This document shows, piece after piece, positions 10,535 through 12,306 of a stretch of DNA of 24,000 bases. Below the pieces are notes generated by a model. The model worked only from the letters and a program-made list of their open reading frames with translations, was not told the DNA's origin and did not search any database. The position numbers and the translations under genes were made by a program. This DNA comes from Candidatus Bodocaedibacter vickermanii (GTDB taxonomy: Bacteria; Pseudomonadota; Alphaproteobacteria; UBA6184). Where the stretch lies: NCBI RefSeq assembly GCF_014896945.1, contig NZ_CP054719.1, forward strand, positions 147,153 through 171,152, written 5' to 3'. Within the stretch, counting starts at the first letter, position 1; each line of letters starts with the position of its first letter.

Positions 10535-11662
10535 ATGTGCACTTATACACAAACGTCAGGGGCAACTGTTACAGTAATTGCGTCTGAAAAAACGTGGATT
10601 GAAGACGAAGCGATTCAACAACTTAAGACAACTGCTGAATTAAACGGAATGAAAAGAGTCGTGGGCTTACCTGATTTGCATCCCGGTAGAGGGACGCCGA
10701 TTGGGGCAGCTTTTATGTCTGAATCGTGGATTTATCCTCACTTAGTTGGGAATGATATTGGTTGCGGAATGGGTCTGTGGAAAACAGATTTATCCGTTCA
10801 TAAACTAAAACTGGATACGTGGGTGTCTAAACTGGATAATCTGGATGAACCATGGGATGGGGATACATCTGAATGGTTGTCAGACTATCAATTGGGTTCA
10901 ACTCCCTTTGATCATTCACTTGGAACGATTGGGGGTGGGAATCATTTTGCAGAGTTGCAAAAAATTGAATCGGTGCTGGATAAGGAACTATTTGAAACAT
11001 TAGGGTTATCAACAAAGCACTTTTATCTGCTGGTGCATTCTGGATCCAGAGGATTAGGTGAATTCATTTTACGAAAACACACGGATGGATCAATAGGATT
11101 ATTGGAAAATTCACCAGAAGCTATTGATTATTTGACTCAACATGATATGGCGGTAAGATGGGCGGGTGCTAATCGATCCCTGATTGCGCATCGATTTCTG
11201 AGCTGCTTAAAAGGCACTGGATCCAAGGTCTTGGATGTCTTTCACAATACTGTTGAACCGTATAATGAAGACAATCAATCCTATTGGCTGCATCGCAAAG
11301 GGGCAACGCCTTCTGATCAAGGGGGTGTCGTGATTCCTGGATCTAGGGGGAGCTTTAGTTATCTAGTAATGCCCACGGGATCTCAAGTTTCAAACGCATA
11401 TTCATTGGCGCATGGAGCAGGGCGCAAGTGGAAACGCACGGATGCAAAGTCTAAATTGTCGAAATTTCGAATGGACGATTTAACCCATACGGATCTTGGA
11501 AGTCGAGTCATATGTGAAGATAAAGACTTGATTTTTGAAGAGGCTCCGCAAGCTTACAAAAAAATTGATACCGTGGTGAATGATCTTGTAAATGAAGGGT
11601 TAATCAAGGTGGTTGCGATTCTAAGGCCTGTCATTACCTATAAAACGAGGAGGGGTAAATGA
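10535..11662 (+). CDS. rtcB: RtcB-family RNA ligase, release-factor-H-coupled subtype (RtcB2-like)
   Basis: 375 aa. Motifs [30 protein letters not shown] and AHGAGRKW (catalytic His region). Overlaps prfH by ATGA. Confidence 0.9.
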
Positions 11663-12306
11663 GTCAAGACACTATTCTGAGATGGGTTCAAATCACATCG
11701 GGACAGGGGCCTGCTGAGTGCGAATTGGCAGTACAACACGTTTTAGATCGTTTTCTGAAAGAGGCTTTGCAACAGCATCTTAAAGTGGATGTTTTAGAAA
11801 AAATACCCGGAGAGAAAGGCAACATCTATCAATCCGTACTGTTGAGTGTCAGTGGTGATAGCCTGATTCCGTTTCTGAAACGATGGCAGGGAACGATCCA
11901 ATGGATTTGTGAAAGTCCGTATCGTCCAACCCACAAGCGTAAAAATTGGTTTATCGGCGTTAACATATTGAATGCGTTAGATTCTCACAAAGATATTAAC
12001 GTTGCCGATTTGAGGTTTGAAACAATGCGAGCATCTGGAGCCGGTGGCCAGCATGTGAATACAACGGACAGTGCCGTTCGTGTGATTCATATTCCAACGG
12101 GGCTTACGGCATTTGCTCAAGAAGAGCGTTCTCAACATATGAATAAAAAACTTGCGCTTGCTAGATTGTCCGCTGCGTTTGATGAGCGATCTATGGCTGC
12201 ACGATTTGAGAAAAATCACGAGAAACATAGCAAACATTATGAGTTAGAGCGTGGCAATCCAACACGTGTGTTTGTCGGTCAAGACTTTAAGGAGAAAGTT
12301 AGATAA
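11659..12306 (+). CDS. prfH: peptide chain release factor H
   Basis: 215 aa. GGQ motif in [23 protein letters not shown]. Short N-terminal part without recognisable RF1/RF2 codon-reading motifs (PxT/SPF). Coupled to rtcB. Confidence 0.85.

Follow-up and report, generated by a model that had tools for sequence, protein, structure and literature searches.

A run of minus-strand housekeeping genes in the genome of Candidatus Bodocaedibacter vickermanii is interrupted by two genes that are read the other way, and the locus raises the question of what this pair does, how it came to lie there and what switches it on. The stretch analysed (contig NZ_CP054719.1, positions 147,153 to 171,152; hereafter the window, 24,000 nucleotides, with coordinates counted from its first letter) carries the genes rtcB2 and prfH, which encode an RNA ligase and release factor H, respectively. 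We consider it likely that positions 9702-12385 form a self-contained rtcB2-prfH operon for ribosome rescue and repair, which was inserted on the opposite strand between tatD and a gene for a metallo-β-lactamase (MBL)-fold hydrolase in the ancestor of a small clade of Paracaedibacteraceae, a family of Holosporales, and which has since been kept by purifying selection under the control of its leader.

The rtcB2 gene (10535-11662, plus strand) encodes a protein of 375 residues that matches the NCBIfam model NF007153 (PRK09588) as an equivalog with 541.7 bits (cut-off 407), and the model TIGR03073 'release_rtcB' with 498.4 bits (cut-off 271.8). It shares 67% identity with the PrfH-coupled RtcB2 of a Comchoanobacterales metagenome-assembled genome (MAG), compared to 28% identity with 19% gaps against the canonical RtcB1 encoded by the same MAG. 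Among the best 120 RtcB homologues listed, all the named ones are annotated as release factor H-coupled RctB family protein or RNA ligase RtcB family protein. Alignment with the solved RtcB structures 2EPG and 4DWR revealed that the AHGAGR motif and a further active-site motif are matched, and that residues D73, C76, N136, H137, H167, H237 and H293 occupy the metal-binding and GMP-histidine positions, the roles of which we take to be those of their counterparts in P. horikoshii RtcB. These comparisons assign the protein to the PrfH-coupled family with its catalytic residues intact, and agree with the sequence-only reading, a preliminary annotation made without database searches, which had described a short RtcB of 375 residues with an intact AHGAGR motif. 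RtcB2-like genes of 50-55% identity were also found in four metagenome contigs (L099, L104, L105 and L106) that hold no PrfH gene in the 3 kb downstream; therefore, not every member of this RtcB2-like branch is PrfH-coupled.

The prfH gene (11659-12306, plus strand) encodes 215 residues, and its start codon shares the letters ATGA (11659-11662) with the stop codon of rtcB2, an overlap already pointed out in the sequence-only reading, by which the two genes are predicted to be translationally coupled. Such an arrangement is the rule: prfH comes directly 3' of the RtcB2 gene in the same orientation, and the stop codon of the one is close to or overlaps the start codon of the other (PMC1586002). 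PrfH scores 253.9 bits on TIGR03072 'release_prfH' (cut-off 166.65), compared to only 128.5 bits on the RF2 model (cut-off 370) and 104.8 bits on the RF1 model (cut-off 400). It covers residues 119-320 of RF2 and lacks RF domain 1. The GGQ motif (residues 129-131) sits within SGAGGQHVN, whereas the codon-reading motifs PxT and SPF are absent, with SPY (residues 87-89) at the equivalent position. With all three of NF007153, TIGR03073 and TIGR03072 above their curated cut-offs, and both open reading frames (ORFs) free of frameshifts, the proposed release-factor-H-coupled pairing and the description of prfH as a 215-residue GGQ protein without the RF1/RF2 codon-reading motifs were both borne out. 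No PADLOC model matched RtcB2, PrfH or the window ORFs of no known family.

The closest solved relative of PrfH is Escherichia coli PrfH (EcPrfH) bound to the damaged ribosome (PDB 7SA4), with an E-value of 2.7e-53, although at 184 bits the alignment to EcPrfH is only a moderate one. In EcPrfH the SPY region forms a pocket for the cleaved end of the ribosomal RNA (rRNA), and residues R83, H86, R88 and R189 hold the 3'-phosphate of A1493 (PMC9304027). Superposition of the two sequences in the 7SA4 alignment places R89, H92, R94 and R198 of the window protein at these four positions, K95 and N96 at those of K89 and N90, which contact h18 and protein S12, and S59 at that of S53 (roles from PMC9304027). 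GGQ and the pocket residues are thus intact. The protein ends in FKEKVR, only three residues past the core alignment, and has no C-terminal tail of the kind found in Capnocytophaga gingivalis PrfH (CgPrfH); it therefore belongs to the short EcPrfH type rather than to the tailed, dual-activity CgPrfH type.

The pair is flanked on the left by the MBL gene (8916-9701, minus strand; Pfam Lactamase_B_2), followed outwards by pepA and holC, and on the right by a tatD-family hydrolase gene (12386-13183, minus strand; TIGR00010, 284.8 bits), followed by recR and ybaB, all on the minus strand and as first described. Synteny was compared over the 80 loci returned by a TatD protein scan with one genome per species, in which the closest TatD proteins are those of 'Candidatus Paracaedibacteraceae bacterium UBA6184' (92%) and of an uncultured alphaproteobacterium (82%), and all others reach at most 49%. 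At 55 other loci (Sphingomonadales, Rickettsiales-labelled MAGs and others) the MBL gene comes immediately after tatD on the same strand, in most cases with a gap of 0-30 bp, which substantiates the statement in the sequence-only reading that the two are adjacent in many alphaproteobacteria. Only the window, UBA6184 (L002/L081), two JGI contigs (L082 and L083) and a Logan assembly (L084) have the pair between these genes, on the opposite strand, and it is absent from this junction outside these close relatives; in the 82% relative tatD is followed by nudix and rnhA genes, and the pair is not there. These comparisons indicate that the pair was truly inserted into an ancestral tatD-MBL unit, though long ago, and that it has passed down vertically ever since. 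The insertion is not recent: at least three related genomes share the pair, its synonymous divergence (dS) is like that of the neighbours, and its GC content (0.41-0.45) is like that of the surroundings, with no compositional anomaly.

The absence of a compositional anomaly and the occurrence of the pair in all close relatives found would also fit a pair that was ancestral at the tatD-MBL junction and was lost elsewhere, with no insertion at all. We regard this as extremely unlikely, given that the tatD and MBL genes of 55 loci lie no more than 0-30 bp apart in the same orientation, as expected of an operon-like ancestral state, and that the nearest outside RtcB2 proteins are encoded in unrelated contexts and in another class. 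Those with 74-75% identity adjoin a methyltransferase gene or fliX, and the one with 67% identity adjoins rtcA-rtcB1-rtcR in the gammaproteobacterial MAG. Moreover, PrfH-like matches (E-value of 1e-20 or better) occur on 205 plasmid records, 22 of them conjugative and 107 mobilizable, and those listed are annotated prfH; this distribution fits a horizontally mobile cassette. Within the window, ARAGORN found no tRNA or tmRNA, and so no tRNA-linked island exists; Pfam detected neither an integrase nor a transposase domain in the window ORFs, and an RtcR or RtcA domain is missing from every window ORF of at least 100 residues, the last as already noted from the sequence. The island reading proposed earlier is supported by the interruption of conserved synteny, seen in this clade only; it is accompanied by no mobility genes, tRNA, border repeats or GC anomaly.

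Ratios of nonsynonymous to synonymous divergence (dN/dS), calculated between the window and UBA6184 and between the window and L084, respectively, were 0.10 and 0.08 for RtcB (dS 0.61 and 0.79) and 0.10 and 0.145 for PrfH (dS 1.17 and 1.00), compared to 0.02-0.045 for pepA, MBL, tatD, recR and ybaB (dS 0.76-2.1 against the same two genomes). Judged by these ratios, rtcB2 and prfH are under purifying selection, somewhat more relaxed than that on the core genes, and the pair, older than the divergence of these genomes, has co-diverged with its neighbouring genes. One could suppose instead that the pair survives in a reduced symbiont genome as a relic, decaying or deregulated, that contributes nothing to fitness: PrfH evolves two to four times faster than the neighbours, the leader of the window genome has taken up a repeat element, and the E. 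coli K-12 locus shows how easily such genes are lost by deletion. Yet both ORFs are of full length with their key residues intact, the promoter and the sequence next to the ribosome-binding site (RBS) are preserved, and dN/dS values of 0.08-0.145 over a dS of about 0.6-1.2 amount to sustained purifying selection, which leaves the relic very unlikely.

Upstream of rtcB2, an alignment of the window, UBA6184 and L084 is mostly impossible or empty except for a conserved block of about 230 bp (10163-10394). The distal spacer (9702-10162) holds dispersed palindromic repeats (9769-10101), shows only 51% identity to UBA6184, interrupted by many gaps, and has no counterpart in L084. The conserved block, by contrast, is 76.5-79% identical to the relatives, a level that neither the four-fold degenerate sites of the flanking genes (52.5-54%) nor the distal spacer (51%) attain. 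It opens with a predicted sigma-70-type promoter on the plus strand (10165-10193), consisting of TTGACA, a spacing of 17 nt and a TG-extended TAGTAT (scan match 10/12 with TG), which was called at the same site in UBA6184 and is conserved in the three-way alignment. A Shine-Dalgarno (SD) sequence GAGG (10213-10216) follows, and then an upstream ORF (uORF) of 14 codons (10223-10267, plus strand) that encodes MQNLESYTPGYVGL and is succeeded by a T-run. The rest of the 5' leader (10268-10534, plus strand) contains a G-poor stretch, a conserved box AAAAATTCAATCC (10314-10326), a small hairpin GGCTA/TAGCT, a second hairpin CGCAC-GCGTT-GTGCG (10378-10392) and a weak RBS before rtcB2. The first 80 nt after the uORF have 9% G and 19% C. 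By manual inspection of these few sequences, a helix between the 3' end of the uORF with its T-run and the box AAAAATTCAATCC is plausible in four of the five close leaders. At gathering thresholds, Rfam found no RNA family in the window.

The start, stop and length of the uORF are conserved in L081, L084, L085 and L134, and stay fixed despite amino-acid changes, over RtcB identities of 67-89% and in differing genomic contexts; the peptides read MQHYWSHILGCFWN in L085/L086 (RtcB identity 75%), MQKFCPNILRCF in L133 (74%) and MQLLLSHNQRSFGL in L134 (67%). An nhmmer profile of the leader found it in every locus with an RtcB of at least 74% identity and only there; therefore, what the family at large has in common is the architecture of the leader and a few positions of the peptide, and not the leader sequence. 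As this conservation shows, the promoter and the 14-codon leader ORF accompany the operon into other genomic contexts, and the uORF is to be counted as a part of the module that the sequence-only reading had missed. About 750 bp on the left had been described there as mosaic repeats; repeats do occupy 9769-10101 and 10442-10518, whereas 10163-10394 is the conserved promoter and leader.

A precedent for such a leader exists in Pseudomonas aeruginosa. PA5471 (ArmZ) is an RtcB-like protein of the PRK09588 family, co-transcribed with PA5470 (prfH), and PA5471.1 is a leader peptide of 13 residues encoded about 250 bp upstream: full translation of PA5471.1 lets a terminator form, and stalling on it, caused by aminoglycosides, chloramphenicol or suhB or cca mutations, abolishes the terminator (PMC3516279, PMC12057347, PMC13041342). 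We define a uORF by a fixed rule, namely an ATG start preceded at a distance of 4-14 nt by GGAG, GAGG or AGGA, and a length of 8-20 codons, all within 300 nt of rtcB2. Under this rule, uORFs are present in 10 of 19 diverse PrfH-paired loci; the strict scan misses that of the window, which lies at -312 because of a repeat insert. The reverse complement of the same 19 loci gave 1/19, and over 500 shuffles the mean was 1.1 and the maximum 5. Among other long intergenic upstream regions of the same loci, 15 of 229 (6.6%) hold such an ORF, corresponding to an eightfold enrichment (Fisher p 9e-7). With the rule unchanged, three of five further loci replicated the result (binomial p 0.0025), bringing the overall count to 13/24. 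Copies on Thiodictyon and Skermanella plasmids showed no uORF by the strict scan.

Further analysis of the peptides from 15 independent lineages revealed a modal length of 14 codons, a serine at position 6 in 8/15 (p 2.4e-6, or 6.6e-4 after correction for 280 position-residue choices) and a glutamine at position 2 or 3 in 10/15. The 80 nt that follow the uORF contain little G, and C equals or exceeds G in 12 of 14 leaders, a composition that would suit Rho entry. On the Ralstonia solanacearum megaplasmid the uORF encodes MRYTVSPLCGPRLG and lies 141 nt upstream. In E. coli K-12 an unannotated ORF of 15 codons (L132 3241-3288, corresponding to NC_000913.3 253240-253287), preceded by AAGGAGG-N6-ATG, encodes MTNPLSMTLCRPFQD between yafP and the ykfJ/prfH pseudogenes; the upstream region containing it is matched over its full length in 3939 of 5426 complete E. 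coli genomes, and the ORF as such was read in K-12 and ST131. In an ST131 strain, where the operon is intact, this uORF stops about 62-75 nt short of rtcB2, and its last codons constitute the 5' arm of a hairpin (GCAGAC..CCAGGA / CCUGGA..GUCUGC) with a U-rich tract behind it; a terminator scan of the K-12 leader called none. The K-12 leader also holds an extra repeat-like insert of about 130 nt compared to ST131, and megablast matches to that region recur several times per genome. The RefSeq note on the E. coli RtcB-family gene cites mexXY inducibility.

It might be argued that the uORF arose by chance within a promoter region that is itself conserved and that the operon is constitutive, as the leader shows no convincing terminator or alternative structure, the peptide sequences vary much and some operons have no strict uORF. 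This we judge improbable in view of the eightfold, prospectively replicated enrichment over control intergenic regions, of the length, start and stop kept over RtcB identities of 67-89% and in other contexts, of the conserved Ser6 and Q2/3, and of the experimentally proven leader in the same gene family, PA5471.1. A wider proposal, which we put forward tentatively and hold to be possible though somewhat short of an even chance, is that a homologous leader peptide (typically of 14 codons, with Q2/3, Ser6, H/Y7 and often F12) is ancestral to and widely conserved in the rtcB2-prfH operons of Alpha-, Beta- and Gammaproteobacteria, rather than a peculiarity of Pseudomonas MexXY; it would act as a damage sensor, on which ribosomes impaired in the decoding centre or stalled for another reason would pause and thereby de-repress the operon, and PrfH may clear the same stalled ribosomes as feedback.

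How the operon might work can be modelled on two known systems. E. coli PrfH acts on ribosomes whose 16S rRNA has been cleaved after A1493, freeing the peptide, and the rRNA is then rejoined by RtcB2 within the 30S subunit (PMC9304027, PMC9223846, PMC13166195). By analogy, an RNase of the colicin E3 (ColE3) or CdiA-CT type would cut the 16S rRNA after A1493, PrfH would recognise the 3'-phosphate end in the empty decoding centre and hydrolyse the peptidyl-tRNA, and the ribosome would then be taken apart for RtcB2 to religate the 16S rRNA in the 30S subunit. Following the armZ-PA5470/PA5471.1 model, normal translation of the leader ORF would keep the operon low, and the 14-codon leader probably switches it on when ribosomes stall there, such that damage or a severe block of translation would induce its own repair. 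Downstream of the leader ORF, the switch could work through an intrinsic terminator, through Rho-dependent termination within the G-poor stretch, or by hiding the start site. As the sequence-only reading proposed, the presence of the pair may reflect exposure to rRNA-cleaving toxins.

The leader design, however, would sense stalling of any cause, and the module may be mainly a general translation-stress device that is induced by, and relieves, stalled ribosomes, as reported for PA5470 and ArmZ. Aminoglycosides, chloramphenicol and tetracycline all induce the homologous P. aeruginosa operon, and PA5470 reportedly relieves ribosomes that azithromycin has stalled; the induction of E. coli ykfJ by 4-azaleucine (PMC3516279, PMC12057347, PMC13041342) counts on the same side, as does the lack of a ribotoxin gene near the pair in the window. 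Conversely, the short EcPrfH is inactive on intact stalled ribosomes in vitro, the dual activity required the C-terminal tail of CgPrfH, which the window protein lacks, and the pocket that takes the cleaved 3'-phosphate end is conserved in full. We take a mainly general stress function to be rather unlikely, and the two readings are not exclusive, as broad sensing could be joined to a specific repair chemistry.

Several observations weigh against the proposed leader-controlled repair operon kept by selection. PrfH diverges faster than the rest of the locus, with 75-80% amino-acid identity compared to 89% for RtcB2 and 92-97% for the housekeeping neighbours (dN of 0.11-0.145 for PrfH versus 0.063 for RtcB2, between the window and L081 or L084), and three secondary EcPrfH contacts are altered (R52 to Q58, H85 to T91 and R181 to H190). 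In the leader, terminator scans found no intrinsic terminator in the window or the relatives; folding is no better than that of shuffled sequences (z -0.13), which holds likewise for the E. coli leaders; and the RNAalifold consensus of four leaders is weak, at -2.4 kcal/mol with one compensatory pair. No strict uORF occurs in 8 of the 19 loci of the first survey (9/19 by the strict scan) or in 2 of the 5 replication loci. The insert in the leader, present in the window only, could have altered the control. Finally, Pfam detected no ColE3/cloacin, CdiA or immunity domains in the window.

That insert belongs to a family of modular palindromic repeats, which occur in both orientations and mosaic combinations in most intergenic regions of the window (834-1093, 5467-5870, 6793-6938, 9769-10101, 10442-10518, 14296-14663, 16091-16235 and 22506-22610), with modules such as GGCAACGTGCCGTTGCATCC, CCAGCGTCACGCTGG and TAATCCGTGTCAGATCACATCGGAT; the family resembles the REP/BIME or Rickettsia palindromic elements. 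The copy in the rtcB2 leader (10399-10520, about 125 nt; family D1) is 83% identical to the copy at 5805-5868, lies between the hairpin and the RBS, and is absent from L081 and L084. It is bracketed by GTATAG at 10393-10398 and 10521-10526, which may be a target-site duplication. The repeat families of the left spacer (D2, D4, D7 and D11-D13) likewise have copies in most intergenic regions, and one copy elsewhere overlaps the start region of holC. As candidate borders of an island the left-hand repeats were rejected, since the same modules recur at six other intergenic sites of the window and the family occurs in most intergenic regions.

At the 3' end, the large hairpin reported on the right of the pair does exist: it lies at 12320-12354 between the convergent prfH and tatD genes, flanked by GGGTGGG repeats, and is retained in two relatives with compensating change of stem and loop. 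In UBA6184 (L081) it has a different, longer inner stem, GAAGCCCC-GAA-GGGGCTTC, which argues for a function of the hairpin. Its folding energy is not exceptional (z -1.74) and the terminator scan does not call it; it is probably a bidirectional terminator for prfH and tatD, without a U-tract.

Other copies of the pair are found in varied surroundings. In the Comchoanobacterales MAG (JBMHDW010000013.1; L134 1-9631) rtcB2-prfH lies directly beside the canonical rtcA-rtcB1-rtcR, and prfH is followed, with overlapping stops and starts, by genes for an AAA/MoxR-like ATPase and a DUF2201 (VWA-like) protein, a cluster that may be an extended RNA-repair island; an AAA ATPase gene also follows prfH on the Skermanella plasmid (L138). 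Further copies (L141 1-993 and the flanks of L143/L144) stand beside an RNA_ligase (PF09414) gene with a methyltransferase gene, or beside transposases, which again points to RNA-repair neighbourhoods and mobility. Elsewhere in the window, a head module like that of phages or gene transfer agents (14902-23336), conserved beside ybaB in UBA6184 and L084, comprises a portal (14902-16122), an S78 prohead protease (16218-16661), a major capsid protein (20052-21035) and a head-tail connector (21038-21616), with five ORFs without a Pfam or PADLOC match (17029-19813) between protease and capsid. Two minus-strand ORFs with TTG starts, of 328 residues (1091-2077) and 191 residues (6124-6699), are also without a Pfam or PADLOC match; counterparts of the latter with 171-175 residues, likewise without a Pfam match, stand at the same place in UBA6184 and L084.

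The relatives of Paracaedibacteraceae are intracellular symbionts of protists, and a repair module fixed and long maintained in this Holosporales lineage raises the question of what damages its ribosomes. The pair itself is a further copy of a well-characterised system and as such of modest interest; the locus is a clean example of a portable cassette that brings its own promoter, leader and terminator along with the two genes and that came to lie within a housekeeping operon. Of the leads, the broad occurrence of the leader peptide is the most novel. Its presence also in E. coli and Ralstonia suggests that stalling control, shown so far only for P. aeruginosa armZ, is general for this repair system; if so, it would explain how cells could restrict the system to times when ribosomes are hurt. 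In the literature searched, no paper treats ArmZ and RtcB2 together and the RtcB2-PrfH papers do not mention a leader or regulation, so that the two literatures are uncrossed there; a family-wide leader peptide, if true, would join them.

Compared to the E. coli RtcB2-PrfH pair (ATCC 25922/CFT073 type; PDB 7SA4), the window pair belongs to the same families, with the same gene order and overlapping stop and start codons; both PrfH proteins are of the short type with GGQ and the A1493 3'-phosphate pocket conserved, and an SD-led uORF lies upstream in both. They differ in the site of insertion (yafP-pepD in E. coli, compared to tatD-MBL in a Holosporales host) and in the leader peptide (MTNPLSMTLCRPFQD compared to MQNLESYTPGYVGL). 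Proteins of the PrfH-CT group have 225-250 residues with a basic C-terminal tail and also rescue intact non-stop ribosomes (PMC12829566); C. gingivalis PrfH (PDB 9MOR/9MQ4) is homologous to the window protein over the EcPrfH-like core (169 bits), whereas the latter, with 215 residues, is tailless. The canonical RtcR-RtcA-RtcB1 system shares the RtcB fold and the residues of the ligase chemistry, but neither RtcR nor RtcA accompanies the pair here, and the substrates of RtcB1 and RtcB2 are reported to be mutually exclusive.

The leaders of tnaC, ermCL and cat/cmlA are attenuators that sense ribosome stalling, and the window leader resembles them in its short SD-led ORF; the stretch after the stop codon of this ORF is G-poor and richer in C than in G, as at a Rho entry site. 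Unlike these attenuators, the window leader showed no defined arrest motif or alternative hairpins. A likeness in design also exists with armZ-PA5470. PRK09588 corresponds to NF007153, which is matched by the window RtcB2, and PA5470 is a PrfH; terminator hairpins are predicted in the Pseudomonas leader, and the model there includes one formed by segments 3 and 4, whereas none was found in the window leader, and ArmZ also binds the repressor MexZ, whereas neither mexZ nor mexXY was seen in the window. Each leader ORF lies a few hundred bp upstream, with 13 residues in Pseudomonas and 14 in the window. A 2025 review called leader control of the PA5471.1 type 'unique to MexXY'. The window uORF is best read, by this analogy, as the counterpart of PA5471.1.

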